This document shows, piece by piece, positions 12,006-63,069 of a stretch of DNA of 64,000 nucleotides (the first letter of the stretch is position 1; every line of letters begins with the position of its first letter). The stretch is from a virus. The notes beneath the pieces are model-generated. The model had not been told where the DNA came from. It made no database searches and saw only the letters and a list, made by a program, of their open reading frames with translations. A program made the translations under genes and the position numbers. The stretch covers positions 1 through 64,000 of the IMG/VR virus record IMGVR_UViG_3300008448_000002. One strand, given 5' to 3'.

Positions 12006-13010
12006 TTAAAAATCCTCATCAAACTTAACTTCACCAGAAACGCCTTTTTGATAGGCAACAACTGTTCTTTCAAAGAAGTTGGTGTTTTCCGCCATATCTT
12101 GTAGAATCATGAAGGGAAAAGGATTATTAGAATTGTATTTTTTATCCATACCCAATCTTACCAATCGTAAATCGGCAACATATTCAAGGTATTCCTTCAT
12201 TTCTGTCTTTGATAATCCAGCAATACCAAGTTCTAATACGTCTTCAGAAAATTGTAATTCTGCTTGTATGGCATCTTCTAACATGTCTAATATTTGTTGT
12301 TTAATGTCATCATCCCACAAATGAGGGTACTCTTGTTTAATCACATCAACTAATTCAAAGGCAAAGTTCATATGTCCCGTTTCATCGCGGAAAATCCAAT
12401 TTGTTATTGAACCAAGTCCATGAAGTAATCCTTTGCTTCTCAAATAATAAACATATGAAAATGCTCCAAAAAAGAACAATCCCTCGATGGCCGCCGCAAA
12501 AGTCACAACATTCATCAAAAATACCTTCTTTTGTTCATCGGTATCACATTTTTTAATTTTTGACATGGTTGCTATCCATTTAAAACAAAAGTCTGCCTTT
12601 GTTTTAATACTTGGAATAGTTTCAATAGCCTTAAACATTTCATTTTTTTCATTGTCATCGGATACATAATTATCTAGTAACAATAGATATGCTTCAATAT
12701 GCTGCATCTCTTCAAACAACTGTCTGCCATAATACATTCTTGCTTCTGGAGAATTAACATGTTTGTATAGAGATAATACGAGATTATTACCAACAATAGT
12801 ATCACCTGTGGCAAAAAATGCCACTAAGCGACTAATTACATGCTTTTCTGCTGGTGTTAATTTATCTCTTAAGTCTGCTATATCAGTAACAAAAGATACT
12901 TCGTCTACTGTCCATGTATTCTTAATGGCATCTTTGTAATGTTGAAAAAATGAAGGGTATTTCATTGGTCTTAGTGTTAATTCAAATCCTGGTTCTAAAA
13001 TGCCTGTCAT
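12006..13010 (-). CDS. nrdB: Ribonucleotide reductase class Ia beta subunit
   Basis: FFATGD, EEMQHIEAY (radical Tyr), IEGLFF and RDETGH di-iron motifs. Confidence 0.95.
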   Translation of the reverse strand: MTGILEPGFELTLRPMKYPSFFQHYKDAIKNTWTVDEVSFVTDIADLRDKLTPAEKHVISRLVAFFATGDTIVGNNLVLSLYKHVNSPEARMYYGRQLFEEMQHIEAYLLLLDNYVSDDNEKNEMFKAIETIPSIKTKADFCFKWIATMSKIKKCDTDEQKKVFLMNVVTFAAAIEGLFFFGAFSYVYYLRSKGLLHGLGSITNWIFRDETGHMNFAFELVDVIKQEYPHLWDDDIKQQILDMLEDAIQAELQFSEDVLELGIAGLSKTEMKEYLEYVADLRLVRLGMDKKYNSNNPFPFMILQDMAENTNFFERTVVAYQKGVSGEVKFDEDF

Positions 13011-15551: not shown

Positions 15552-16601
15552 TTAAAACTCAAATAAACTTTCAAAAATAGCAGTTTCTTTAGTAAGGTTT
15601 AAATCCCAATTTAATACACCTATCATATTTTCTAGTTTATCGTCAATGACTTTTTCCTCCATTGTAGAATCATCAAACGGCATATCTTTAAACCATTCTG
15701 GCAAATGCGGTTCATCAATAGGATACGCAATACTATTGATGCCATATGTATTGGGTTTCAATTTACAAACAATAATCTTCTGTCCATCACCGATATCCAT
15801 TGAATAGTTATCATGAAATACTTTTTTCATCATATTCCAATTAATACTTGCTTGTACCTGCCATGGTATTGTAAATCCCTTCGGTTTAAATCCTTTTTTT
15901 GTATTTTCTTCTATTTTTTGTGCGTAGACAGTCAACCCATTAACTTTTTTCGGTGAGCCTTTTTCCCATCCTGGTCTGCTTTTAAACTCTCTTCTAAAAT
16001 GTTTAATATAATCAATAATATCTTCAATGGGAGAATCCTTCAATACTTCCATTAAAACATGCTTAAGAAAGTCTTGTATAACTTTAGGAGTGTCGCTGCG
16101 CTTTAAATCAATACCCATTGCTTTTAATGAGCCAACCCCATTAGAATCTTGTCTGATGCCTTCCTTATCATATACAAGCATGGCATATCGCTTCTTCTTA
16201 ATGAATAATGCTCTACTTGCTATATTTTCTCTTGAACATTTAATAATTGATGCCTCTTGTTCGGAGCAGTTAAATGTTTTAATCATGAAGTCTTTAAAAC
16301 TATCACTTACTCTATTGGCAACACCATCATATAATTCAATGATTGTTTCTTTATCATCTAGCAAATGTTTATCTTCTTCACTTAATGCTGGTGCTATTGA
16401 GAAAATACAACTATCAGTATCAGAATAAATATTAACCTTTGAATTATGATTATATTCTCCGATTAATTCGTAAGATAGTTGGCTATTCATATGTTTGGCA
16501 ATGCTTCTACCTGTCAATGTAACTGATTGTCCTATTCTTTGGTCAAAGAATCTACAAAACTCATTGAGTAGAGCACCATAAAGGCTGTTAAGTAAGATTT
16601 T
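15552..16601 (-). CDS. gp43: Family B DNA polymerase C-terminal subunit (gp43B), exon 2
   Basis: KILLNSLYGA (motif B), YSDTDS (motif C), KKRYA, LKAMG; the first 11 aa of the track ORF are intron sequence. Confidence 0.9.
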   Translation of the reverse strand, partial: KILLNSLYGALLNEFCRFFDQRIGQSVTLTGRSIAKHMNSQLSYELIGEYNHNSKVNIYSDTDSCIFSIAPALSEEDKHLLDDKETIIELYDGVANRVSDSFKDFMIKTFNCSEQEASIIKCSRENIASRALFIKKKRYAMLVYDKEGIRQDSNGVGSLKAMGIDLKRSDTPKVIQDFLKHVLMEVLKDSPIEDIIDYIKHFRREFKSRPGWEKGSPKKVNGLTVYAQKIEENTKKGFKPKGFTIPWQVQASINWNMMKKVFHDNYSMDIGDGQKIIVCKLKPNTYGINSIAYPIDEPHLPEWFKDMPFDDSTMEEKVIDDKLENMIGVLNWDLNLTKETAIFESLFEF

Positions 16602-16870
16602 CGTTTTTTGTTCGCATGAGGTCGTTAATCTCATACCGTTCTTTAAAAGAACTGCTTATATTTACATATAAGACCAGACTATATCACAATCCTTTTTTTT
16701 AAAGGATTCCACCCATTTCGCCTCACTTGAGGCTACGAGATTTCTCTCTAGTCGTTGAACCTTCCTTGAATATCAAGGCTTGGCTGCTGATTGTCCTTTT
16801 TTGAGGAGTTTCCAGCAATTAAAGTGGTTATTCAGTGAACATTGCTATTCAAGGTCGCTGCTAATTCTTA
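16602..16870 (-). ncRNA. Group I intron (IA2-like), 269 nt, no internal ORF
   Basis: Core elements AAUUGCUGG, AAUCAGCAG, GUUCAACGACUA and GAUAUAGUC; 5' exon ends in U pairing with GCGA (P1); terminal G; intron UAAGAAUU pairs with the 3' exon (P10); splicing restores FWDGRQHTR|KILLNSLYG. Confidence 0.93.
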
Positions 16871-17047
16871 ACGAGTGTGTTGTCTTCCATCCCAGAATGA
16901 TGCCTCTTTGTAATACGTTTCTGTATTACTTGGAACAATTTTATCATCCTTTAATATGAGATTGTGTTCTTTCATATATACAGATAAACCAGAAGCATCA
17001 CTATTAGAGACAAATTCTTGTATTTTATCTCTTGAGTATATTGTCAT
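16871..17047 (-). CDS. gp43: gp43B exon 1 (59 codons; not in ORF track)
   Basis: MTIYSRDKIQ...YYKEASFWDGRQHTR with AAGGAG 9 nt upstream; spliced product is 408 aa. Confidence 0.85.
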
Positions 17048-17062
17048 TCATTTAAACTCCTT

Positions 17063-17070
17063 TATAAATA
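17063..17070 (+). promoter_or_regulatory. T4-type late promoter for the endonuclease gene
   Basis: TATAAATA followed by AGGAG and ATG at 17088. Confidence 0.75.
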
Positions 17071-17087
17071 CAATACAGGAGAATGAT

Positions 17088-18095
17088 ATGAGTAGTCAAG
17101 TAGAAAATATAGATTTTGTAAAATGTAAGATATGTAATAAAGAATTAAAAGAATTAAATTATCATATGAAAAAATGCCATTCAATATCATGTGATGAATA
17201 CATCATACGGTATCCAAATTCTCTAATTATATGTAAGGCTAGTTCAGAAAGTAAATCAAAAAAAGTAAAAGAAAACTATGATTACAAAAGAGAAAACAAT
17301 ATTTCTTTAAGCCCATCAACCGAAACGCGACTTAAAATAGCAGAAAAATCAAGAGAACTCCATCAGAGAAAAAAAGCGGAAGATTATGATGGATATATGC
17401 GGAGACAGGCAACCAATGCTGAAAAAGCGAGGCTCGCAAAAGGTGATAATTTCAAGCATTCCCAAGAGACACTTGAAAAAATGAAGGGACCCAGATTACA
17501 GTGTAGAGGCATTCCCAAAAGCGAAGAGACTAAAGAAAAATTGTCTAATAGTAAGAAAGGTAAAAAAACACGCCCACATACAGAAGAAACTATCGGCAAA
17601 ATGAAAGAGAGTTGGTTAAGAAGAAAAGAAAATAAAGAAGAATATGCCATATATACAAAAACTTTGTCCGATAATATGAGTAAAAATATAAAAAACGGAA
17701 AGATAACAAGACCCAATTCACATATCCCCACCAGATGGGAAACTTGGTATATGGATTTTTGTAATAAAAACAGAATACAGTACAAGTATCACTATATACT
17801 GGAGGGTAAAGAGTTTGATTTTTATTTACCAGAATACAATACCTTAATAGAGTTAGACAATGAATACTATCATTCATTAACAGTATCCATTAAAAACGAT
17901 GAAACAAAAAACAAAATAGCAGAAAACAATGATATTAAATTAATAAGAATATCATCAGATGATTGTAAATCTAAGAGTAAATCTTTTGAACATTTTGAAC
18001 AAATGTTGAAATTGGGTAAGGATGATGCCGCAATGTTGTGTGAACATCTAGTAGAAAAAAGAAAAATAGTTAATAAAGAAAAAAATCTAAAGTAA
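17088..18095 (+). mobile_element. Free-standing homing-endonuclease-like gene (Zn-binding N-terminus, NUMOD3 repeats, Vsr/DUF559-like nuclease); start revised to 17088
   Basis: CKIC..H..KCH; HSQETLEKMK, KSEETKEKLS and HTEETIGKMK; DFYLPEYNTLIELDNEYYH. Antisense between gp43A and gp43B. Confidence 0.8.
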
Positions 18096-19730
18096 ACCTT
18101 TAAGTTTATTTAAAAAATCATTATTCTCAATCTTTACTCCACTTGCCAATTTATAATACTCTTCACTTTTCGCCTTCATAATCTTTCGTTCGCTATACCA
18201 TTTTTCTAATAGTCCTGGTATAATGGCTTTTTTATCTTTTCTGAATATTGTTCCATTTGCGCTAATGAGATATTTACTATCTTCTTTAAATATCATGACA
18301 TATAACTCTTTGGCAGTACACATAGATGCCGTGCCATCTTCAAAATCAATAGTTATGTTTTCATCACTTTGTTTTAATAACTCTTCAAACTCAAGAGTAC
18401 AAAACAATCCTTCCCATGTATCGGTCTTTTTCCAACCTTCTCTTAACCGTTTGCTTAATAGACTATCGGTTTTCTCTGGTCTAATATGTCCAAAAAGGGT
18501 TTCTGGTCCCATATTCAATGCCCTAATGACACTTGGATATAGTGAGTTAATATCAATGCTTCCTACTTGTTGATGTATTCCAACTTTAGGATTAGCGACA
18601 TATGCTCCAACGGCGGGAGTGATTTCTATGTCTTCATTTTCTTCGAGTTGTTTTTTCCTATCAGGTACTTTTAAACCTTTGTCATGCGCCTCTTGGATGA
18701 TTGCCTGTTCAACTAATAATACACTGCCCATTGTTGTAGGTAATAATACCCCGTTATAATGGGCAATCTGATTAGCCAATTCAATAAACTTCTTTTTCTT
18801 ATCAATTTTATATAATAGTAACGTATCTTGTCTGTTATAATCTATAAACTTTTTAAAATCATTTTTATATAATTGGTCAAGTGTTCCTTCGTATGGTGTT
18901 TTATTGTCACCTACTTCAATCTCCGCCACATAATCTAATTTATAGCTTTGTAATTCTTGCCCATTATGTTTCTTATATAGTTGTAGATAATCGAGATGTA
19001 TTCTACCCATGAGTTCATATGTTTTTCTTATCTTTCCAAACTCATTATATTCCTTTTCCTTTGGGTTCATGTTCCATAGACATAATCTTTTTGCGAATGA
19101 ATCACCTAATAGTAACTTTATTCGGTTAATGATATAGGGAATATCGAAGCCTTTACTGTTCCATCCTGATAATACATCAATATCATAGATTAATTTTAAA
19201 AACTTTTTTAATAATTCTTTTTCATCCGAGTAAACTATTGTATTTTGGAAATCAGAACACAAGTTGACTGCCTCATCCTTTGTTAAGGTTGGCGGAACTA
19301 ATGCCAATGTATGTAAAATGTTGGTTGATGAATCATACAGACTTATTGCCGTGATAGGAGCAAAAGTATCCCACGGGTCGGCATACCCCTTCTCAGGGTC
19401 AAAGTCTGTCTCAATATCGAAAAATCCAATATTTAGTGTTGGAGTGTCGCACCCCCTGTAGTTTTCTTCTAAACATTTGAAAATAGGATTAATATCACTT
19501 TCAAATATTCTTTCATTTTCAAAGTCTTGTAGCTTTTCCTTAAAGTCAAAATTGTCTTTTGCTATGTATTTGTCTAGCTTATCACCGAAAATAGATGTAA
19601 ACTTACCATTTTTTGCTGGATGATAGAATGAATACTCTAGCGGATACTCAACGTATTTTCTATCCTTGTTAATTCGTTCAACAACTTTTACTAATGATTC
19701 TTTTCTGTCTAGGATAGCGTCTACGAACAT
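18087..19730 (-). CDS. gp43: Family B DNA polymerase N-terminal subunit (gp43A): 3'-5' exonuclease + motif A
   Basis: FFDIETD (ExoI), GWNSKGFDIPY (ExoII), YNRQD (ExoIII), SIDINSLYPS (motif A); ends in the fingers region. Confidence 0.92.
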   Translation of the reverse strand: MFVDAILDRKESLVKVVERINKDRKYVEYPLEYSFYHPAKNGKFTSIFGDKLDKYIAKDNFDFKEKLQDFENERIFESDINPIFKCLEENYRGCDTPTLNIGFFDIETDFDPEKGYADPWDTFAPITAISLYDSSTNILHTLALVPPTLTKDEAVNLCSDFQNTIVYSDEKELLKKFLKLIYDIDVLSGWNSKGFDIPYIINRIKLLLGDSFAKRLCLWNMNPKEKEYNEFGKIRKTYELMGRIHLDYLQLYKKHNGQELQSYKLDYVAEIEVGDNKTPYEGTLDQLYKNDFKKFIDYNRQDTLLLYKIDKKKKFIELANQIAHYNGVLLPTTMGSVLLVEQAIIQEAHDKGLKVPDRKKQLEENEDIEITPAVGAYVANPKVGIHQQVGSIDINSLYPSVIRALNMGPETLFGHIRPEKTDSLLSKRLREGWKKTDTWEGLFCTLEFEELLKQSDENITIDFEDGTASMCTAKELYVMIFKEDSKYLISANGTIFRKDKKAIIPGLLEKWYSERKIMKAKSEEYYKLASGVKIENNDFLNKLKGLL

Positions 19731-20111
19731 TTAAATCGCCTCTCTAGGTAAGCTGTCTAATGGTTTTACAATAAGATGTTTTGGATAGTAATCAAGATTA
19801 TCTGCCCATACTATCCAATTAACAATTAGTGTATCTGGAAGTTTTTTTATAGTTGACTTATAAATGAATAAATCCGATGTAAATGTTACATTTTGTAAAT
19901 TTTGTTCAGTAATATCCATATCATCTTTTATAAAAAATACAACATCGCATACCCTTCTGTCTATGGACTGATTAATTATATACTTTATTGGTACGAGATG
20001 GGCAGTATTATATAGTGACATAAAAAAATCATTTATTTCTAAATCATGTTCTATAATTGGGCAACTATTAAGAATATCATAATCAGATTGTTTAACATAA
20101 AAGTTTTTCAT
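19731..20111 (-). CDS. Hypothetical protein, paralog 1 of 3
   Basis: LQNVTF...IKKLPDTLIV...VWADNLDYYPKHL. Confidence 0.7.
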   Translation of the reverse strand: MKNFYVKQSDYDILNSCPIIEHDLEINDFFMSLYNTAHLVPIKYIINQSIDRRVCDVVFFIKDDMDITEQNLQNVTFTSDLFIYKSTIKKLPDTLIVNWIVWADNLDYYPKHLIVKPLDSLPREAI

Positions 20112-20485
20112 CTTGTGCGCCGATGTTCCACTACGAGGTGGTTTGGATAATATTCTAATTTTGTATCATTTTCAACATATACTGTCCCATGTACTATTAA
20201 TGAATCTGGTAACTTTGTTATAGTTGATTTATCTATAGATACACAGCCAAAAAATGTAACATTTTGTAAATCGCGCTCTTCAACATCGTCACCATCATAT
20301 ATATGAATACCATATTGCGATATTCGCTCTTCTGTTGTTTGGTTCACAATAGTAAGTAATTTATCACTAGATTCAGTTTCATTTATCCATAATAATATAC
20401 AAAAATCACTATAACTATACACATGACAATTTGACAGTTTAAGTATATCTTCAAATATTGTCTGTTTAACATAAAATGTTTTCAT
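20108..20485 (-). CDS. Hypothetical protein, paralog 2 of 3
   Basis: LQNVTF...ITKLPDSLIVHG...YYPNHL. Confidence 0.7.
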   Translation of the reverse strand: MKTFYVKQTIFEDILKLSNCHVYSYSDFCILLWINETESSDKLLTIVNQTTEERISQYGIHIYDGDDVEERDLQNVTFFGCVSIDKSTITKLPDSLIVHGTVYVENDTKLEYYPNHLVVEHRRTR

Positions 20486-20486
20486 T

Positions 20487-20870
20487 TTATAACTCTGTAT
20501 TGAATGATTTTACGGTAAGATGCTTTGGATAGTAATCAAGATTATCTGCCCATACTGTGCCTCTAACCTTTAATGAATCTGGTAGTTTTTTTATACTAAT
20601 ATCATAAATATAAAGGTCTTCGGCACATATCACATTATTTAAATGAGATGAAGTATTGTGATGGGTAAAACAAATATTATATGTAAATGGCACAGTTTTT
20701 TCTTCGGTTGAAAGATTGAATACTCTATATGTGTCTCGCACTTTTGTGAAATCACTTATAAATGAGATAAACATATTATATGTCCCAATTACCTTAACAT
20801 CAATTATTTTAAAAGCATTAAATCGTTGTAATACGTTATAATCAGTTTGAGATATTGAAAACGATAGCAT
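20487..20870 (-). CDS. Hypothetical protein, paralog 3 of 3
   Basis: IKKLPDSLKVRGTVWADNLDYYPKHL; ~40 bp near-identical to paralog 1. Confidence 0.7.
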   Translation of the reverse strand: MLSFSISQTDYNVLQRFNAFKIIDVKVIGTYNMFISFISDFTKVRDTYRVFNLSTEEKTVPFTYNICFTHHNTSSHLNNVICAEDLYIYDISIKKLPDSLKVRGTVWADNLDYYPKHLTVKSFNTEL

Positions 20871-21489: not shown

Positions 21490-21750
21490 TTAATTTATTT
21501 CTTTCCATCTAAGTAGTTGATAACCAGAATTAACGGATGTCATCTGTTTAGTATATTTATGACCTTTGGTTTTGTTAAGAATATCATGAACGCAATAGCC
21601 AGTTGTATCGACAACTTTAAGAGATAACATGTAGTTACCATTTAATCGTATCGCTTTGATGCTATTATCTTTCATCAATTTATACTCATGAACAGTAACT
21701 ACAAACTCATTCAATTTAAGTACAACTTTCACAAGTTTCTGGATTTTCAA
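21490..21750 (-). CDS. Hypothetical protein
   Basis: 86 aa overlapping the nrdA 3' end. Confidence 0.5.
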   Translation of the reverse strand: MKIQKLVKVVLKLNEFVVTVHEYKLMKDNSIKAIRLNGNYMLSLKVVDTTGYCVHDILNKTKGHKYTKQMTSVNSGYQLLRWKEIN

Positions 21751-23500
21751 GGTTTTTTACTTCTTGTGTATCACTTGTCATTGACTTGTTTATTTTAGTT
21801 GCCGCTTTACTACGCAAGTAATAAGATGTCTTTAAATCCTGTTCATAAAGGTACATGTACATACTTGATAATGTTTCAAGTTTAGGATTTTCCACAAACA
21901 AGTTTAAACTTTGGCTCTGGTCAATAAAATACGAACGAACAGTAGCATGATTGATTAACCATCGTTGTTTAATTTCCCATACGGTTTTATATAGGTCTTT
22001 AAGGCTTTGTGGGATTTCAGAAATATTTTGTATACTGCCTTCCGCCATAATAATCTTATCGGCAATAGTTTTATTCCATAATCCAATTTCTTTTAAATCT
22101 TCAACCAAGTATCTGTTTGTGCGAATGAACTCACCACTCAATGTTTCTGTTTTAAAGATATTTGATATTTGTGGTTCAATACATTCTTGACTCGCAGTAA
22201 TAGCGGCAATCGTCACAGTAGGGGCAATGGCAATCAAAAGACTGTTTCTCAATCCATTTTCCTTGATATCTTCTTTAAGGGCATTCCATCGCGCCATATC
22301 TTCAATAATAGTGCCATTAGGGAATATTTCAACCATAGAATCTTTTAATTGAGACAAAGGTTTTGCCAAGTCAAATTGTAGTAAACCATTTGCGGCATGG
22401 GATTTTTCAAAATCAGCATGTTTGCCCAATTCTTTTGCCAATTTACAGCTTGTTTTTAAGGCAGCATAATAAATCTCTTCTTGTATCTTGGCACTCCATT
22501 TAATTGCCTCATTACTATCAAAAGGAATTTTCATCTTGAAGAAAAAGTCTTGTAGTCCCATGATTCCTAAACCAACAGGTCTATGTCTACTATTACTCGC
22601 TTTTGCTTCATATGTTGGGTAAAAATTTCTATCAATAACTTTGTCAAGAAACTTTACTGCCAAGGCAACATTCTTATGTAATTTCTTAACATCTAACGTA
22701 CCATCTTTGAAATATTTACCAATATTAATACTACCAAGATTACAAACAGCAGTTTCGCCATTATGAATAGCAGTAAACTCTTCTTTCTCGGCATCATAAG
22801 AAATGATATTAAGATTAGTTTTATCAATACTGTCTAATTCGTCTTTCTTAAATGTAACATATTGCCCTGATGCTGTCGGCTCCAAAATTTCAGTACACAA
22901 ATTTGAGCTATGTAGGACATCTCCACCTGTAGCAGTATTACAACGAATGTTTGATGAATCTCTAAAACACATCCACCCGTTGCCAGTTTCAGATAATGTT
23001 TTCATCATTCTGTGAAATACTGTTTTTGCTGGAATCTGTTTAACAAATAAGCCTTTTTCTTCTAATTCAAAATATTTTTTATTGTATTCTTCTCCGAATA
23101 AATCATTCAACTCTTTACATGTAGTTGGGTCAAATAAACTCCACATTTCATTATTTTTAACTCGTTCCATGAATAAACTAGGAATCCAGTTGGCAATGTT
23201 AATGTTATGTCCTCTGCGCTCTTTTTCACCCGTATTATCTTTCAACTCCAAAAAAGAAAGAATATCGGGATGATGCGTATCTAAGTATACACAGGCAGCA
23301 CCTTTTCTCTTTCCACCATTGTGTACAAAGCCAATAGCAGTATTATAGTTTTTTGTATTATTTACTTTTAAATCATATACTTTTCCCGTGTATTCTTTTT
23401 TTACAATAGAGGTAATCTTTTTAAACTGTAGTTTCTTATGTTCGTTTAAGAAAAGTTCTTCTTTATTTAACTCTTGTAGTTGGTCTTCGTTATTATACAT
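21716..23500 (-). CDS. nrdA: NrdA C-terminal part, preceded by a 61-aa split-intein C-fragment
   Basis: ...VYDLKV...GFVHN|GGKRKGA; SSNLCTEI, AVCNLGSINI, GLGIMG, AIAPT, KTSYYLR and C-terminal CESC. Confidence 0.92.
   Translation of the reverse strand: MYNNEDQLQELNKEELFLNEHKKLQFKKITSIVKKEYTGKVYDLKVNNTKNYNTAIGFVHNGGKRKGAACVYLDTHHPDILSFLELKDNTGEKERRGHNINIANWIPSLFMERVKNNEMWSLFDPTTCKELNDLFGEEYNKKYFELEEKGLFVKQIPAKTVFHRMMKTLSETGNGWMCFRDSSNIRCNTATGGDVLHSSNLCTEILEPTASGQYVTFKKDELDSIDKTNLNIISYDAEKEEFTAIHNGETAVCNLGSINIGKYFKDGTLDVKKLHKNVALAVKFLDKVIDRNFYPTYEAKASNSRHRPVGLGIMGLQDFFFKMKIPFDSNEAIKWSAKIQEEIYYAALKTSCKLAKELGKHADFEKSHAANGLLQFDLAKPLSQLKDSMVEIFPNGTIIEDMARWNALKEDIKENGLRNSLLIAIAPTVTIAAITASQECIEPQISNIFKTETLSGEFIRTNRYLVEDLKEIGLWNKTIADKIIMAEGSIQNISEIPQSLKDLYKTVWEIKQRWLINHATVRSYFIDQSQSLNLFVENPKLETLSSMYMYLYEQDLKTSYYLRSKAATKINKSMTSDTQEVKNLENPETCESCT
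23318..23500 (-). mobile_element. Split intein C-fragment (IntC), followed by Gly+1
   Basis: Block F YTGKVYDLKV and block G GFVHN; Lys-rich in its C-terminal half. Confidence 0.9.
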
Positions 23501-23508
23501 ATCAATCC

Positions 23509-24684
23509 TTAATATTCTGTAGTCAATAAAATGTCTGTTTCTCTAATATCTTTGGCATCAAGCCATTCCGCCTTTAACAATCCCTCATTAAAAAGTCTTT
23601 CAACTTCTTCAATAGGATGATTAGCGGCATTTTTAATAATCAATAAGGGATGTTCAGGTGTTAGTGTGATTGATTTACCATTAGAAATGATTTCAAATAC
23701 TTCTCCTTCATACTCTCCCTCCATTACTTCGGCAATCTCTTGTAATCCAGAAGTTGTATTAACAAGATTTCCTTCAATCAATTCTTCTATTTCAACTAAT
23801 CCGCCCGATGTTTCAACTTTTGAATCTGGTAATAAACATTGATTGACGGCGGCGATGTTGGCATCTAATGAATGTAGGAATGGAATAATACCGTTGCTTT
23901 TACCATTCGTCCCTTTAATCAATGAACCAGTACCTCGAACATTTGAATAGGATAACCCAATGCCACCAGCCCATTTACTGAGCATGGCAATGTCTTTATG
24001 CTTTTTTTCAATATCCAATAAATCATCAATAGGACTAGCCAAGAGATAGCAACTACTCATTTGACTATGTGTTGTGCCACTATTAAACAATGTCGGGGTA
24101 CTTGTCATGTAATCCAATGAGGATAATAATTCGTAAAACTCAATAACATCTTTAACATCATCGGATAGTCCACACGCAACTCGTAGTAACCAATATTGCG
24201 GTGTTTCAAATACAAATCTTTTTGTGGGATGTTTCAGTAAATATCTATCATAGACAACCTTTAATCCGTAGTATTCAAAAAGATTGGTATTTTCTTCTTT
24301 GATGGCACTATTAAGTTTTCTTTTGTTTTTATTGACGAAATCAAGTGTTGATTGTGAAATTAGTCCGTTATCGTATCCCAATTGAATACTTTGACTGAAT
24401 GAATGAATTTCTTGACCTGTTACCTCTTTATTAATGAGAGAGTTTAATAGTCTACTCGCAACTTTTGAATAAATCGGGTCATCCTTAACAAATCCTACCG
24501 CTGTTTGTATGGAAAGTTCATCGAGTTCTTTCGTAGATACACCATCATATAATCCACCAACTGTTTTTGTGGCAATAGTAAAATGGTCTACATTTTCTAA
24601 CCCTTCGCAAACTTTTTTAACACTGTTGATGATTTTTTCGATATTTACAGGTTCTTGAGAACCATTTCTTTTTGTTACTTTCAT
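23509..24684 (-). CDS. nrdA: NrdA N-terminal part (ATP cone) followed by a 109-aa split-intein N-fragment
   Basis: VTKRNG ATP cone, TPTLFNSG, SSCYL, GGIG; AAVNQ|CLLPDSKV. Confidence 0.92.
   Translation of the reverse strand: MKVTKRNGSQEPVNIEKIINSVKKVCEGLENVDHFTIATKTVGGLYDGVSTKELDELSIQTAVGFVKDDPIYSKVASRLLNSLINKEVTGQEIHSFSQSIQLGYDNGLISQSTLDFVNKNKRKLNSAIKEENTNLFEYYGLKVVYDRYLLKHPTKRFVFETPQYWLLRVACGLSDDVKDVIEFYELLSSLDYMTSTPTLFNSGTTHSQMSSCYLLASPIDDLLDIEKKHKDIAMLSKWAGGIGLSYSNVRGTGSLIKGTNGKSNGIIPFLHSLDANIAAVNQCLLPDSKVETSGGLVEIEELIEGNLVNTTSGLQEIAEVMEGEYEGEVFEIISNGKSITLTPEHPLLIIKNAANHPIEEVERLFNEGLLKAEWLDAKDIRETDILLTTEY
23512..23838 (-). mobile_element. Split intein N-fragment (IntN)
   Basis: Block A CLLPDSKV and block B TLTPEHPLL; strongly acidic; no endonuclease domain. 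Confidence 0.9.
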
Positions 24685-24742
24685 TAATTATTCCTAAAAT
24701 TATTTATTGTTTGATTTTATCATAAATTGTACTGTATGTCAA

Positions 24743-26175: not shown

Positions 26176-29100
26176 TTACTTGTTTTTATATTGCTCCCAT
26201 GCCAATGCGAACGCTAATCCCTTAGTTTTAACTTTACTCGGATATAAATCGTCAACTCTCTTTTTAACCCAATCATGTGCCTTCTTAGAAAACTTTTCGG
26301 TGAGTTTTTGTTCTTTTAACAATTTTGTATATTCTTGTAATGATAACCCTGTATTACTCTCTATAATATTTTTTAAATCATCACTAACTATTTGTGAATA
26401 CTTTTCATTTTCTGTTAAAAGGTTGGTTGCTTTGATGAAATGAGAATCGGATAATTCTTTCTCGAAACCCATTATGTCATTAATTTCTTTAACTGGCATT
26501 TCTGGTTGTCTATAAGAGGTATAATTTTGAACATTTTTAAAAATATCATCTTTATTTAGATTCATTTTATTAAATAAACTTCTCAAAGCGTTTTTAACCG
26601 TGGGGGTGAGGTATTCTTCGTTCTTCTTGGAAACTATAATAATTTCATTAAGAATGCTATTGAAAATCCCCGATGCGTCTTTTCTATCATTGCTGGTTAA
26701 AAACGGAACTATATTAAATAAGTGCGCCTTGCCAATAAACTTGTTCAATACAGACAATTCTTTATAATATGGTATTTTATCTTTATTTTTTTCTATATAC
26801 TTTTTATAATCACTATCTGTCCAATCGCTACTAACAGTTGGTTTATTAACAATACCATCAACAAGTTTAAATAATTTAGTATAGTATTCTTTTTTAAGAT
26901 ATTCAGGATTACATGCTGCTTCCATTGCTCCAGCAAACATTTCGGTATTTCTTTTTACTTCAGAAAACTTAGTATGATAACCACTACCTCCTGCTGCTCG
27001 CCATTCAATATATCCATCATTCTTTAGTCTTGAAAGATTAATAGACTGATACTTGGCGTTGGTTAAAGATTCGTCAATTAGAGGATTTAATGTATTTTCA
27101 ATAAACTGTATATCACCAACCGATTGTACGTTTGATGAAATTACCCTTTTTAATTTATCTACTACACTTGCCGCCCAATTAGATTTTTCTCTATTAAAGC
27201 TACTCAATACATGTGAATCGTTAGATAATACCAAAAGTTTCAATAAATTGAAGTCTTTGTATGATTTACCTTTAATGCTTAAATTAATATGTAATCCACA
27301 AGCATCATTAGTATCACCCTTCTCTTCAATATATTTAAATATCTTACTTATTTGTTCTAACCCCGTCTTCAATTCAAATGGTGGGCTGATTATTTCTACT
27401 GGAATCATCTCATTGTAATCACTATCTAATGACGAATCAGGCTCTAAAATATAAGTGTCTGGTTGTCTTTCTGTATTATGATAGCCATCACTTACTATTG
27501 TTTTGTATCCTGTTAGTTTTTGTATTACAGGCGCGTGTTCATGGTAATGAATAGAGGTTGATTCTTCGTCATTGTCACTATATATATCGTCCCAATATTG
27601 TAGTATGTCATCTGTTATTGATATGTATAACTTGTGTTCGCCATTTATTTTTTCATACTCATATTGATTTCCCATTCTTTTAAGAATAAATATAAAAAAA
27701 TCTTTCATAGTATCAAATTGTTCAGGCATGTTAGTAGAAAAATATTCTTCAAACAATTCATCAATTTTTCCTCCAACATCCGTATAATTTTCATTAGTGA
27801 AAGATAGCATCTCTATTACTATATCAATCATCTCACTATTATCATTAGTCATTGTAGACAAATTTAGTAAGTATTTTTTATCATGAAGACTAATCACATA
27901 ATTTTCATCGCCTAAAAGATAATCCGTTGATTTCAAAAAAGTATTTTTAATAATACTATCATAATCTTTTATAAAAGAATGTATTCTTTTTCTATCAAAC
28001 ATCCATGATAATTTTATTTCAGAAAATGCCTCATAATAGTTGTCAAAATCATCAACATTCTCAAAAAGACCTTGAATATCATCAACCAAGTGTGACTCAC
28101 ACGAAATATCAGACAGCACCCATTCTTTTTGTGGGTTGGGAGCATTTGGTTCATAATCATCTGGTAGTTCCCCCGTTGATGATACATAACACTCTGCTTC
28201 AAATCCCATGACAATATCTGTTAAATTGTCCTTCTTAAACATTTTTTCATTAAGTTGTTGTTCTTTTAACAATTTTGTATAATCTTCTAACGATAGACCA
28301 GATTTACGTTCGATTAATTTTTTTAAATCTCCCGTAATAACTTTTGAATATTTTTCATTTTCTATTAAAAGATTAGTTACCTTAATGAAATGAGAGTCGG
28401 ACAACTCTTTAATACCTAGTATTTTCTGTATAATATCAAATGATAATACCATAGATGAATATCTTTCAATCATCTCAAAGTCATCTTTTGTTATGTCAAG
28501 TTTTTTAGCTATAGTACGGATAGCCAATAAATCCTTTGGTGGTATTTTATTTCCCCTTTTAATCGTATATTTATAAACATCATATAATAGCCTAGAAAAT
28601 TGTAATATAGTCTGCTCTCTACTCATATTACCAAGGTGAGCATACCTACTATCCAAATCTACCCCATTGATATATGAAGATAATGTGTATAATTCCTTAT
28701 AAAATGGAATATTAGATGAAAACTTCTTTAAATATTTTATAACATCATTGTTTGTCGTTGGTGTATCTTGATTATTAACAATACCATCAACAAGTTTGAA
28801 TAATTTTGTATAATATTCTTTTTTCATATAATCTGGATTACATGCTGCTTCCATTGCTCCAGCAAATTGTTCAATGTTGCGTTTTACTTCGGAAAACTTA
28901 GTATGATAGCCACTTCCTCCCGCCGCTCGCCACTCAATATATCCACTATTCTTTAATCTGGATAGGTTAATAGACTGATATTTTTCATTAGTGAAATAAT
29001 TATCAATGAGTGGATTTAAAATAATTTCAATTCGCTCTAAATCAATCACCTTATTTAATGTTGTTGATATCGTTTTTCTTAATTTTTCTACTGTGCTCCC

Positions 29101-31110
29101 TGCCCATCTTGATTTTTCTCTATCGAAACTACTCAATACATGTGAGTCATTTGATAAAACTAATAATTTCAATAAGTTAAAGTCTTTATAACCTTTTCCT
29201 CTAATGCTTAAATTGATATGTAGACCTGTTGCCTCGTTTGTGTTGCCATTCTTTTGTATGTAATTAAATATTTTATTGATTTGTTCTAAACCAGTTTTTA
29301 ATTCAAATGGTGGACTAATGATTTCTACGGGTACTAAACCATCATAACTACTGTCTAAAGACGAATCTGGTTCTAAAATATAAGTATCTGGTCTTCTTTC
29401 GGTATGATGGTAGCCATCACTTACTATTGTTTCATACCCTGTTAATTTTTCTATTTTTGGGGCATGTTGATGATAGTGTTCTGATTGTTCTTCTTCCTCG
29501 TCTTCATCATATTGTGTTATGTCGTCCCAATATTCTAATGTTCCCTGTGAAGTATCAATAACTAATTTATATTCACCTCTTTCGTTAGTGTATACTGAAC
29601 CACTACCATCCAATTCTGTAATTACATCTATCATCACTTGATTTAATGATTTATAATACTCTTTGTAAAATGTTTCTTTATCATACATAGTATCAAACAT
29701 ACGTTGTATATGATACTGAATATCCATATGTGAATCATTTTGTTTTTTAAGTAACAGGTAGATTATTTCTATCATATTACTATCATTGTCAGTAATATTA
29801 TCGAAATCCAATGGATAATAAGTCCCGCCATATGCTCTAAAATAACGATTATTGTCATTTTCTTTAAAAGCGGCTGTTCTTGATTCTTTAAATATTCTTA
29901 TTATATCTTTTTCATCTTTTTTAATAAAGTTTTTTATATGTTCATCTTCGCCGTCTAATTGCCATTCTTTATACTTTTCATCTATTATTCCTCTATAAGA
30001 ATAAGTGTGCTCACCAACATTGTCTAAATAATCTTGTATAGTATAAACCCATTCTTCAATATCACTAGGAGAAGTAACAGATTTTAAATCAATAGTCGTA
30101 CTTGGTGTCCCATCACCTTCTTCTCTGGCACTTTGCTTGGCATACGCGCTATATGAAGCAGTAACATAACACTCTGCTTCAAATCCCATGACAATATCGT
30201 TGAGATTGTCTTTCTTAAACATTTTTTCATTTAACATTTCAAAATGTTCTGTGAGGTTTTCTATCTCGGTAACATCAATAATACCATCATCAACAAATTC
30301 ATCATATGTTTCATCATCGGTATAGATAACATCGGGATTTTTATTAGTAAATATCAAGGTTTTTAAATCATCAATACTATATTCTGTACAACCGCCAAAC
30401 TTGTTTTTAAAATCATGGCAAGATTCTTTATAGGCGTTAATCGCCGCCTGTTTGTTTTTAAAGCCTATCATGAACTTATCTTCATCAAACTTCATTCCAA
30501 CTTTATCTAGTTGATGTATGACGAATATAGGGGCATTCTTAACGGGTTTCGTATTCAAAAAGAAATCTAATTCTTCACCATCGGGAGAAATAGTATTAAC
30601 TATACTACCATAATGATAAACTTGTTCTCTTGACCATTCTTCACCATCATCATTAACCCCTTTACGAATATCTCCAGCAAGGGTTTCAATGTTAAGTTTA
30701 ATTCCATGATAGTTTACAACTTTTTTTGGTTTGATAGAATCTCGTAATTCTTTACTATTAACCCAAAAATATTCAAAAATATCATTATATTGTTCAGTAA
30801 ATACATCTTTAATAAAATTAGAAAATCTTAAAACCTTTGAACCGTCTTCAAATACATTATTATTCTTAATGAAATCATTTACTAACAAGGATAATTCGTT
30901 ATTATCTGATTCTAATTTTGGTAGTTTTGGAAAATATACATCATTATATTGTTGCTCCGCAGTCATCAAGTACTTGATACATACCGTTTTAAGAGTTTCC
31001 TTAATAGTATATTCATCTTTAAAATCAATATCTTTTTTTGTTTCGGGATGATTCAATATTAAATCTAAATATTGTTTCCATGTTGCCAGTTCTACCATTT
31101 TAACTCCCAA
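26176..31110 (-). CDS. Polyvalent-type protein: inorganic pyrophosphatase-like domain + two tandem amidoligase (COOH-NH2 ligase) domains
   Basis: YGSIVNTISPDGEELDFF...FDEDKFMIGF; two copies of GFEAEC / EPDSSL / EIISPP / GLHINLS / KYQSINL / YIEWRAAGG. Confidence 0.75.
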   Translation of the reverse strand: MGVKMVELATWKQYLDLILNHPETKKDIDFKDEYTIKETLKTVCIKYLMTAEQQYNDVYFPKLPKLESDNNELSLLVNDFIKNNNVFEDGSKVLRFSNFIKDVFTEQYNDIFEYFWVNSKELRDSIKPKKVVNYHGIKLNIETLAGDIRKGVNDDGEEWSREQVYHYGSIVNTISPDGEELDFFLNTKPVKNAPIFVIHQLDKVGMKFDEDKFMIGFKNKQAAINAYKESCHDFKNKFGGCTEYSIDDLKTLIFTNKNPDVIYTDDETYDEFVDDGIIDVTEIENLTEHFEMLNEKMFKKDNLNDIVMGFEAECYVTASYSAYAKQSAREEGDGTPSTTIDLKSVTSPSDIEEWVYTIQDYLDNVGEHTYSYRGIIDEKYKEWQLDGEDEHIKNFIKKDEKDIIRIFKESRTAAFKENDNNRYFRAYGGTYYPLDFDNITDNDSNMIEIIYLLLKKQNDSHMDIQYHIQRMFDTMYDKETFYKEYYKSLNQVMIDVITELDGSGSVYTNERGEYKLVIDTSQGTLEYWDDITQYDEDEEEEQSEHYHQHAPKIEKLTGYETIVSDGYHHTERRPDTYILEPDSSLDSSYDGLVPVEIISPPFELKTGLEQINKIFNYIQKNGNTNEATGLHINLSIRGKGYKDFNLLKLLVLSNDSHVLSSFDREKSRWAGSTVEKLRKTISTTLNKVIDLERIEIILNPLIDNYFTNEKYQSINLSRLKNSGYIEWRAAGGSGYHTKFSEVKRNIEQFAGAMEAACNPDYMKKEYYTKLFKLVDGIVNNQDTPTTNNDVIKYLKKFSSNIPFYKELYTLSSYINGVDLDSRYAHLGNMSREQTILQFSRLLYDVYKYTIKRGNKIPPKDLLAIRTIAKKLDITKDDFEMIERYSSMVLSFDIIQKILGIKELSDSHFIKVTNLLIENEKYSKVITGDLKKLIERKSGLSLEDYTKLLKEQQLNEKMFKKDNLTDIVMGFEAECYVSSTGELPDDYEPNAPNPQKEWVLSDISCESHLVDDIQGLFENVDDFDNYYEAFSEIKLSWMFDRKRIHSFIKDYDSIIKNTFLKSTDYLLGDENYVISLHDKKYLLNLSTMTNDNSEMIDIVIEMLSFTNENYTDVGGKIDELFEEYFSTNMPEQFDTMKDFFIFILKRMGNQYEYEKINGEHKLYISITDDILQYWDDIYSDNDEESTSIHYHEHAPVIQKLTGYKTIVSDGYHNTERQPDTYILEPDSSLDSDYNEMIPVEIISPPFELKTGLEQISKIFKYIEEKGDTNDACGLHINLSIKGKSYKDFNLLKLLVLSNDSHVLSSFNREKSNWAASVVDKLKRVISSNVQSVGDIQFIENTLNPLIDESLTNAKYQSINLSRLKNDGYIEWRAAGGSGYHTKFSEVKRNTEMFAGAMEAACNPEYLKKEYYTKLFKLVDGIVNKPTVSSDWTDSDYKKYIEKNKDKIPYYKELSVLNKFIGKAHLFNIVPFLTSNDRKDASGIFNSILNEIIIVSKKNEEYLTPTVKNALRSLFNKMNLNKDDIFKNVQNYTSYRQPEMPVKEINDIMGFEKELSDSHFIKATNLLTENEKYSQIVSDDLKNIIESNTGLSLQEYTKLLKEQKLTEKFSKKAHDWVKKRVDDLYPSKVKTKGLAFALAWEQYKNK
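26296..30225 (-). repeat. Internal tandem duplication (1980-bp and 1950-bp units)
   Basis: Both units begin KMFKKDNL.DIVMGFEAECYV and end KELSDSHFIK...YTKLLKEQ.L(N/T)E; DNA similarity is visible at 28191 versus 30171. Confidence 0.9.
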
Positions 31111-62993: not shown

Positions 62994-63069
62994 AGGAGTA
63001 TAGCTCAACTGGTAGAGCGTTGGTCTCCAAAACCAAAGGTTGTGGGTTCAATCCCCTCTGCTCCTGCCA
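62994..63069 (+). tRNA. trnW: tRNA-Trp (CCA) with encoded CCA end
   Basis: AGGAGTA/TGCTCCT acceptor, TAGCTCAACTGGTAGAGC D-arm, TTGGT-CTCCAAA-ACCAA anticodon arm, GGTTCAATC T-loop. Confidence 0.95.

Follow-up and report, generated by a model that had tools for sequence, protein, structure and literature searches.

Reviews name a Cys, Ser or Thr at the +1 position, the first residue of the C-extein, as the nucleophile for the second and fourth steps of splicing in every intein, and the absence of that nucleophile is treated as the mark of bacterial intein-like (BIL) domains (PMC4031507). BIL domains of type A splice in trans as well as in cis: the Asn cyclises, an amine then attacks the thioester, and cleavage products outweigh the spliced product (Dassa et al. 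2004; Aranko et al. 2013, as summarised in PMC4031507). Here we analyse a 64,000-nucleotide stretch of viral DNA (the window), positions 1 to 64,000 of the IMG/VR record IMGVR_UViG_3300008448_000002, in which nrdA, encoding the large subunit of a phage class I ribonucleotide reductase (RNR), is divided between two genes. From its sequence, we regard the dividing element as a genuine, ancient and naturally split intein of the class 1 type, inserted at loop 2 of the RNR and followed at +1 by Gly.

The insertion site itself is catalogued. The RNR intein of CroV is an InBase entry with the N-extein ending ...YVNQ, the intein running CFTPDT...GIVHN and the C-extein starting SGRRKGS (Green, Novikova and Belfort 2018, PMC5784728, supplementary file 3). 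Comparison of these tabulated junction residues with the window reveals an identical insertion point and block pattern. The CroV intein is, however, a contiguous one with a LAGLIDADG endonuclease, and Ser stands in place of the first Gly of loop 2, so that canonical splicing is possible for it, whereas the intein in the window is split, has no endonuclease and retains the Gly. Viral inteins with the CroV-type Ser+1 junction fall inside the same tree as the intein described here. The original prediction had left undecided whether this allele was already catalogued: the site is, through CroV, but we found no paper on the Gly+1 form. A search of the literature on inteins and RNR, in whose coverage most subscription journals are not included, returned no mention of a Gly+1 intein. 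What appears to be new, then, is a true intein at a catalogued site and in a known split architecture from which the defining +1 nucleophile is absent.

The type A BIL domain of Clostridium thermocellum (2LWY) shares with the window the HINT fold, Cys1, a His-Asn end and the lack of a +1 nucleophile. BIL domains nevertheless reside in variable regions of non-conserved bacterial proteins, do not home and mostly cleave, whereas the family to which the window belongs occupies a single invariant RNR site, restores the host motif exactly on removal and has many members with LAGLIDADG domains. Moreover, this family matches the Pfam profile Intein_splicing, with two contiguous members (P0009 and P0148) exceeding the curated cut-off, while the BIL-type profiles PT-HINT and Hint_2 do not rise above theirs: Hint_2 scores 20.1 bits in the window against a cut-off of 28.4, and a PT-HINT match in P0009 is a separate downstream element.

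Two further systems resemble the locus in its gene structure. In the fractured NrdA-1 to NrdA-7 (Dassa et al. 2009, PMC2677866), phage nrdA is likewise found in pieces bearing intein halves; there, the split inteins immediately precede the thiyl-radical Cys instead of interrupting loop 2, and the paper presents them as inteins of the ordinary type. The NrdA of Aeromonas phage Aeh1 (Friedrich et al. 2007; Crona et al. 2010, PMC3045599), to which the original prediction had likened this one, is also made as two polypeptides that must reassemble. The likeness holds to that extent and is otherwise a loose analogy, since the Aeh1 gene is split by the mobE endonuclease gene at another position in NrdA, has no intein motifs and gives chains that assemble through short tails and are not ligated.

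The organisation of the locus is set out in Table 1. Read on the minus strand, the intein blocks, the stop, the spacer and the second ATG are all as the original prediction had them: gene 1 runs from AAVNQ into an acidic IntN with the motifs CLLPD and TPEH, an AAGGA sequence overlaps its stop, and IntC closes with VHN before a Gly codon (GGT, 23317-23315), each correct to the base. IntN has a net charge of -17, and the AAGGA, a Shine-Dalgarno sequence, stands 5 nt ahead of the ATG of gene 2. The two reading frames differ. No gene lies between the halves in the window, and hence no free-standing homing endonuclease gene, again as had been stated.

Table 1. Features of the split nrdA locus, with the gene for the small-subunit partner
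Feature	Position	Strand	Description
Promoter-like site just upstream of gene 1	24714..24742	-	TTGACA, 17 nt spacer, TAAAAT, with TG; 11/12 consensus, consensus match only
Gene 1, 391 aa, NrdA N-extein + IntN	23509..24684	-	ATP-cone, Ribonuc_red_lgN, start of Ribonuc_red_lgC barrel
N-extein, 282 aa	23839..24684	-	Ends ...IAAVNQ (Gln -1 of loop 2); sequence
IntN, 109 aa	23512..23838	-	Block A CLLPD, block B TPEH, end TTEY then TAA; Pfam E = 2e-5 (own-genome search)
TAA stop of gene 1 + 8-nt spacer (23508..23501)	23501..23511	-	Sequence read directly
Gene 2, 594 aa, IntC + NrdA C-extein	21716..23500	-	Ribonuc_red_lgC E = 3.6e-154
IntC, 61 aa	23318..23500	-	Block F VYDL (VYDLKV...NY), block G GFVHN; Pfam E = 2e-6 (own-genome search)
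Gly+1 codon GGT, first C-extein residue	23315..23317	-	Sequence; then GKRKGAAC
C-extein, 533 aa	21716..23317	-	Starts GGKRKGAAC; holds SNLCTEI, YYLRS, C-terminal CESCT
nrdB (intact), small-subunit partner of NrdA	12006..13010	-	Ribonuc_red_sm E = 1.4e-83; no internal stops

The part of the RNR barrel in gene 1 corresponds to the first 72 profile positions and follows the ATP-cone and the all-alpha domain; after it come weak matches to Intein_splicing, Vint and Hint_2. The codon of Cys1, the sole Cys of IntN, is TGT (23838-23836). IntC begins with an acidic 20-aa N-terminal extension, contains no Cys and has a net charge of +7 in its last 40 aa. Exact removal of the intein gives AVNQGGKRKGAAC (NQGGKRKGA), the loop 2 motif of about 100 uninterrupted NrdA homologues, so that the claimed insertion between the Gln and the Gly of this loop is upheld. 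The joined exteins compute to 815 aa, the product size that had been put forward, and keep all of the motifs SSCYL, SNLCTEI, YYLRS and CESCT.

The Pfam profile Intein_splicing matches both halves co-linearly, with positions 27-75 in IntN and 115-155 in IntC (gene 2 residues 21-61), and its last position falls on the terminal Asn. Since the match is co-linear and ends exactly at this residue, the halves are those of a genuine intein and not a chance resemblance. Of the features by which a class 1 intein is recognised, HINT blocks A, B, F and G, Cys1, the block B Thr-x-x-His and the His-Asn end are all present, and a Cys, Ser or Thr at +1 is not. The insertion is in frame at a conserved site of the host protein, whose motif returns on removal, and the halves are carried by separate genes, one ending in IntN and the other starting with IntC, with the split at the position of the endonuclease domain. 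In its relatives, LAGLIDADG occupies that position, and on the structural model of a relative (see below), the split point flanks a low-confidence linker.

How widespread the Gly is was established by a survey of homologues of the kind that the original prediction had proposed. The +1 residue was counted only in three sets seeded by the N-terminal junction and thus blind to +1; a viral scan with the pattern HNGGKRK is biased towards Gly+1 and was therefore kept out of the counting. In the first set, an IntN-only HMMER search of 1.84 billion cluster representatives, all 10 RNR matches with V(N/D)Q preceding the Cys and a resolvable C-terminal junction have Gly+1; inteins of non-RNR hosts in the same list end HN followed by C or S and serve as an internal control. 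Bacterial loci found with the pattern ..AAVNQC in one genome per prokaryotic species gave Gly+1 in 12/12 resolvable cases, from Acidobacteriota, Actinomycetota and Pseudomonadota, the cultured Fulvimonas soli DSM 14263 and Arenimonas daejeonensis KACC 14631 among them. Among 58 distinct viral inteins found with the pattern ..QCF, 49 have Gly+1 and 9 have Ser+1. Taken together, Gly is found at 71/80 junctions. Gly+1 is therefore the conserved majority state at the loop 2 site of a large intein family and no local oddity. The codon, moreover, is GGT, GGC, GGT and GGC in four independent split loci, and because it varies synonymously among them, Gly+1 is selected and is no read error.

The other splicing residues are retained throughout. 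All of the 97 distinct inteins end in Asn (97/97), and the residue before it is His in 96/97. One of the 12 bacterial loci, a Gly+1 member from an Acidobacteriota metagenome-assembled genome (L101), ends Lys-Asn. Cys1 is likewise found in 97/97, although the search patterns required it. In an alignment of 38 sequences, Gln-1, Cys1, the block B His, a Tyr ahead of block G and the His-Asn pair are invariant, and the VYDL of block F is nearly so; a regular expression for block B missed 9 of the 97 sequences, which we ascribe to the interval searched and not to loss of the motif. The catalytic set is kept whether the intein bears LAGLIDADG, is a mini-intein or is split, and whether it comes from a phage, a giant virus or a bacterium.

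Searches with the start of gene 2 yielded two kinds of relative, split and contiguous. Those of the split type (P0001-P0006) have an IntC of 61-64 aa and the junction VHN/GGKRKGA, where the slash marks the splice site. The contiguous relatives comprise a mini-intein of 168 aa (P0008) and LAGLIDADG-bearing inteins of 368-378 aa (P0009, P0056, P0067), and all four read NQ/C...HN/GG. When longer, contiguous relatives of IntN were sought with a word index, none came up.

The split layout recurs in independent assemblies with the same Met start position and a conserved IntC extension, and the spacers differ: 8 nt in the window, 78 nt between the two nrdA genes of L007 and a whole ORF in L004. The last of these, of 392 aa (phrog_22677), makes L004 resemble the fractured genes of Dassa et al. 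2009, in which a free-standing ORF stands between the halves, unlike the window; a paralogue of this ORF weakly matches a homing-endonuclease PHROG (E = 4.5e-4). In L006, the C-half is present without an adjacent N-half. The three split lineages (the window, L004 and L007) are 33-44% identical in the intein halves and 57-66% identical in the exteins. Given this divergence and the lack of endonuclease drive, the exteins and the intein catalytic set of the split lineages must have been under selection for a long time.

A quick maximum-likelihood tree was calculated with IQ-TREE from the N-terminal 100 aa and the C-terminal 45 aa of the 97 distinct inteins; its root is arbitrary and many forks are unresolved. 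The split inteins of the three lineages cluster in it on long branches with support of 82-85, a pattern compatible with one old split. The Ser+1 inteins form a well-supported clade of eight, with one further long-branch row, placed among Gly+1 lineages.

L004 and L007 also contain a second, downstream split intein in nrdA (L004:5400-7440 and L007:5560-6464; APTA/C...SHN/T), giving a three-piece gene. This second intein has the canonical Thr at +1 and so provides an internal control within the same genes; in L004, the two splits are occupied by paralogous ORFs of about 400 aa (phrog_22677), one in each, and the nrdA of the window is continuous at the APTA site. The 78-nt spacer of L007 contains a perfect 12-bp inverted repeat (CTGCTTGTTTGA ... 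TCAAACAAGCAG; L007:3925-3990), directly preceding the GAAGGAG ribosome-binding site of the second gene. On the chromosome of the cultured A. daejeonensis KACC 14631 (L090), a contiguous Gly+1 nrdA intein is frameshifted inside its LAGLIDADG domain, giving two ORFs with one splicing half in each; the frameshift may reflect a sequencing error or, alternatively, an intein on its way to becoming split.

To place the family structurally, we modelled a Gly+1 mini-intein relative (P0148, L087:3865-4410) with AlphaFold, using a 25-row family alignment that includes the halves from the window. The model (pLDDT 86.4, pTM 0.84) has a HINT fold as judged by Foldseek, and on it, IntN of the window aligns as far as the strand that precedes the low-confidence linker, and the IntC core aligns beyond this linker. 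The top Foldseek matches are the nucleophile-free BIL domains 6y75 and 6tmm (Tetrahymena BIL2) and 2lwy (C. thermocellum BIL). The best of them, BIL2 from the BUBL1 locus of Tetrahymena thermophila (6Y75, 6TMM), gives E = 1.4e-8 and a TM-score of 0.62-0.75; its sequence is only 16% identical to the modelled relative, and its host is a polyubiquitin-like locus. Next, within about one order of magnitude, come the GyrA, DnaB, CDC21, RadA and gp41-1 inteins and Hedgehog, and because classical inteins score within a factor of ten, the ranking does not decide between a BIL domain and a classical intein. The family sequence profile matches PI-PkoII (3.7e-13), then 2lwy (7e-9) and then the Pho RadA intein (1.4e-8), whereas a sequence search of the Protein Data Bank with IntN alone gave weak intein matches only.

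A promoter-like site precedes gene 1 (Table 1), and the minus strand shows no terminator-like site between gene 1 and gene 2. The two genes are likely to be co-transcribed, with gene 2 initiating independently at the AAGGA site.

We propose the following maturation pathway, every step of which we infer, and to which, as a whole, we would give an even chance. Gene 2 would be translated from its own Shine-Dalgarno site on a transcript that it probably shares with gene 1. The acidic IntN and the basic IntC core would then associate into a single HINT fold, aided by the packing of the two halves of the RNR barrel against one another. An N-S acyl shift by Cys1 would produce a thioester at Gln-1, and cyclisation of the terminal Asn of IntC would free the C-extein with a Gly-Gly amino terminus. 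The unhindered alpha-amine of this Gly could then attack the adjacent thioester by aminolysis, forming the native Gln-Gly bond of a seamless 815-aa NrdA. The route would involve no branched intermediate and is the one demonstrated for type A BIL domains. Sortase likewise uses an oligoglycine amine on a Cys thioester. Ligation is favoured because the barrel halves should hold the amine beside the thioester, because Gly offers the least hindered amine and because a nick in loop 2 should harm specificity control. A class 3 mechanism acting through an internal Cys was also considered, and was rejected because IntN contains no Cys other than Cys1, IntC has no Cys and there is no class 3 signature.

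Several points weigh against ligation. Cleavage products dominate over spliced product in BIL domains, and efficient aminolysis is therefore not guaranteed. The conservation of Cys1 and of His-Asn is equally expected from double cleavage without ligation. In phages and giant viruses, RNR genes are accessory, and a second RNR barrel gene is present in 3/3 bacterial genomes checked: Fulvimonas soli (L184/L186), Rudaea sp. (L183/L185) and Arenimonas daejeonensis (L182/L187). On both counts, we dropped the argument that an essential gene must be matured. The Ser+1 clade at the same site shows that a nucleophile is sometimes selected, which hints that Gly+1 may be costly or suboptimal. Finally, the two halves in the window are clearly complementary in charge (-17 for IntN, +7 for the IntC core), but those of L004 (-7 and +1) and L007 (-7 and -6) are not clearly so.

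The most serious competitor is excision without ligation, which we consider unlikely, if well short of negligible. The thioester would be hydrolysed, the Asn cyclised and the intein lost, so that NrdA would be a nicked enzyme of 282 aa and 533 aa held together by the barrel fold. Such a reaction would draw on exactly the residues that are conserved and on no +1 nucleophile; cleavage is the dominant outcome in BIL domains (PMC4031507), and phage Aeh1 offers the example of a two-chain NrdA with full activity. The Aeh1 enzyme, however, depends on special tails and is split at a different position. Here, the nick would sit in loop 2 between the Gln and Gly-Gly-Lys-Arg, the segment that relays specificity, and the free amine beside the thioester is chemically prone to ligate. 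If, on the other hand, the halves engaged in no chemistry and only docked, Gly+1 would be irrelevant, and a 170-aa HINT domain would remain on loop 2 of the working enzyme. Split-intein halves do bind tightly, and those of the window carry opposite charges. Docking, nevertheless, needs none of the residues so strictly kept here (the Asn in 97/97, the His in 96/97, the block B His in all 38 aligned sequences) in the face of intein identities of 33-44%; contiguous relatives would have to bear an insert of 170-430 aa in a functional loop, and the charge complementarity is absent from L007. This makes simple docking improbable in our judgement.

The retention of catalytic residues over such deep divergence argues against a purely non-covalent zipper and, in the same way, against a dead gene. 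That the locus is a frameshifted contiguous intein, a decaying RNR or an artefact of assembly is suggested by its origin in a metagenomic contig and by the frameshift in the endonuclease domain of the Arenimonas relative L090. The same split, however, occurs in independent assemblies with the same Met start, a conserved IntC extension and different spacers; the exteins keep all catalytic motifs at 57-66% identity, and the three split inteins group in the tree. We give this explanation very little credence. Splicing might, alternatively, be canonical after all, with another nucleophile such as the Cys at +9 of the window (GGKRKGAAC) standing in or with the GGT codon recoded or edited. This, too, is highly improbable: the split relatives P0001-P0006 have Ala at +9, a branched intermediate needs a nucleophile adjoining the scissile Asn, and the Gly codon is GGT or GGC according to the locus, with no result pointing to recoding.

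The source record is a 194,657-bp IMG/VR virus with a CheckV completeness of about 51% and a GC content of about 31%, and the window is its first 64 kb. Hallmarks of tailed phages in the window include a large terminase, a DnaB-like helicase, tail tube and tail fibre proteins and a family B DNA polymerase. The split nrdA is the only RNR large-subunit gene in the whole 194.7-kb record, and the window also encodes an intact NrdB. Phages in GenBank gave no megablast match to the split nrdA locus.

The family B DNA polymerase is itself encoded by two minus-strand genes (15552-19730). The gene at 18087-19730 supplies the exonuclease domain and PolB profile positions 12-137, and that at 15552-16634 supplies positions 157-345; between the polymerase pieces lies a plus-strand ORF of 379 aa (16956-18095), in which a weak NUMOD3 motif recalls homing endonucleases. 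Intein motifs were not detected at these polymerase genes, and the arrangement looks like an intein-less split of the type known for gp43 of some T4-like phages. Elsewhere in the window, a 1644-aa protein (26176-31110, minus strand) has an InPase-like domain at its N-terminus (PF18823, E = 1e-30) and, as seen by eye in the translation, a long internal duplication, with the putative amidoligase domain PF12224 matching two stretches. Three tandem paralogous genes of 125-127 aa (19731-20870, minus strand) share the motif KLPD(S/T)L.V...YYP(K/N)HL and match no family, and a tRNA-Trp (CCA) gene (62994-63069, plus strand) overlaps the end of a minus-strand ORF that leaves the window.

A large, mobile and deeply diverged family of true inteins, inserted in a functional RNR loop, thus keeps all its other catalytic residues, and yet the residue at +1 is mostly Gly. 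We suggest, tentatively and with the odds falling a little short of even, that this family represents a fourth mechanistic kind of true intein, splicing without a nucleophile, in cis and here in trans, by attack of the Gly amine on the Cys1 thioester. The pair in the window would in that event be a natural split intein, ready for use, whose action leaves behind no Cys, Ser or Thr scar. If the family ligates, nucleophile-free splicing would be a mainstream natural mechanism and more than a curiosity of BIL domains, and the split phage form would be a naturally occurring reagent for protein ligation at a plain glycine. If it only cleaves, many viral and bacterial RNRs would be nicked, two-chain enzymes cut in their specificity loop, an outcome that would be equally unexpected.

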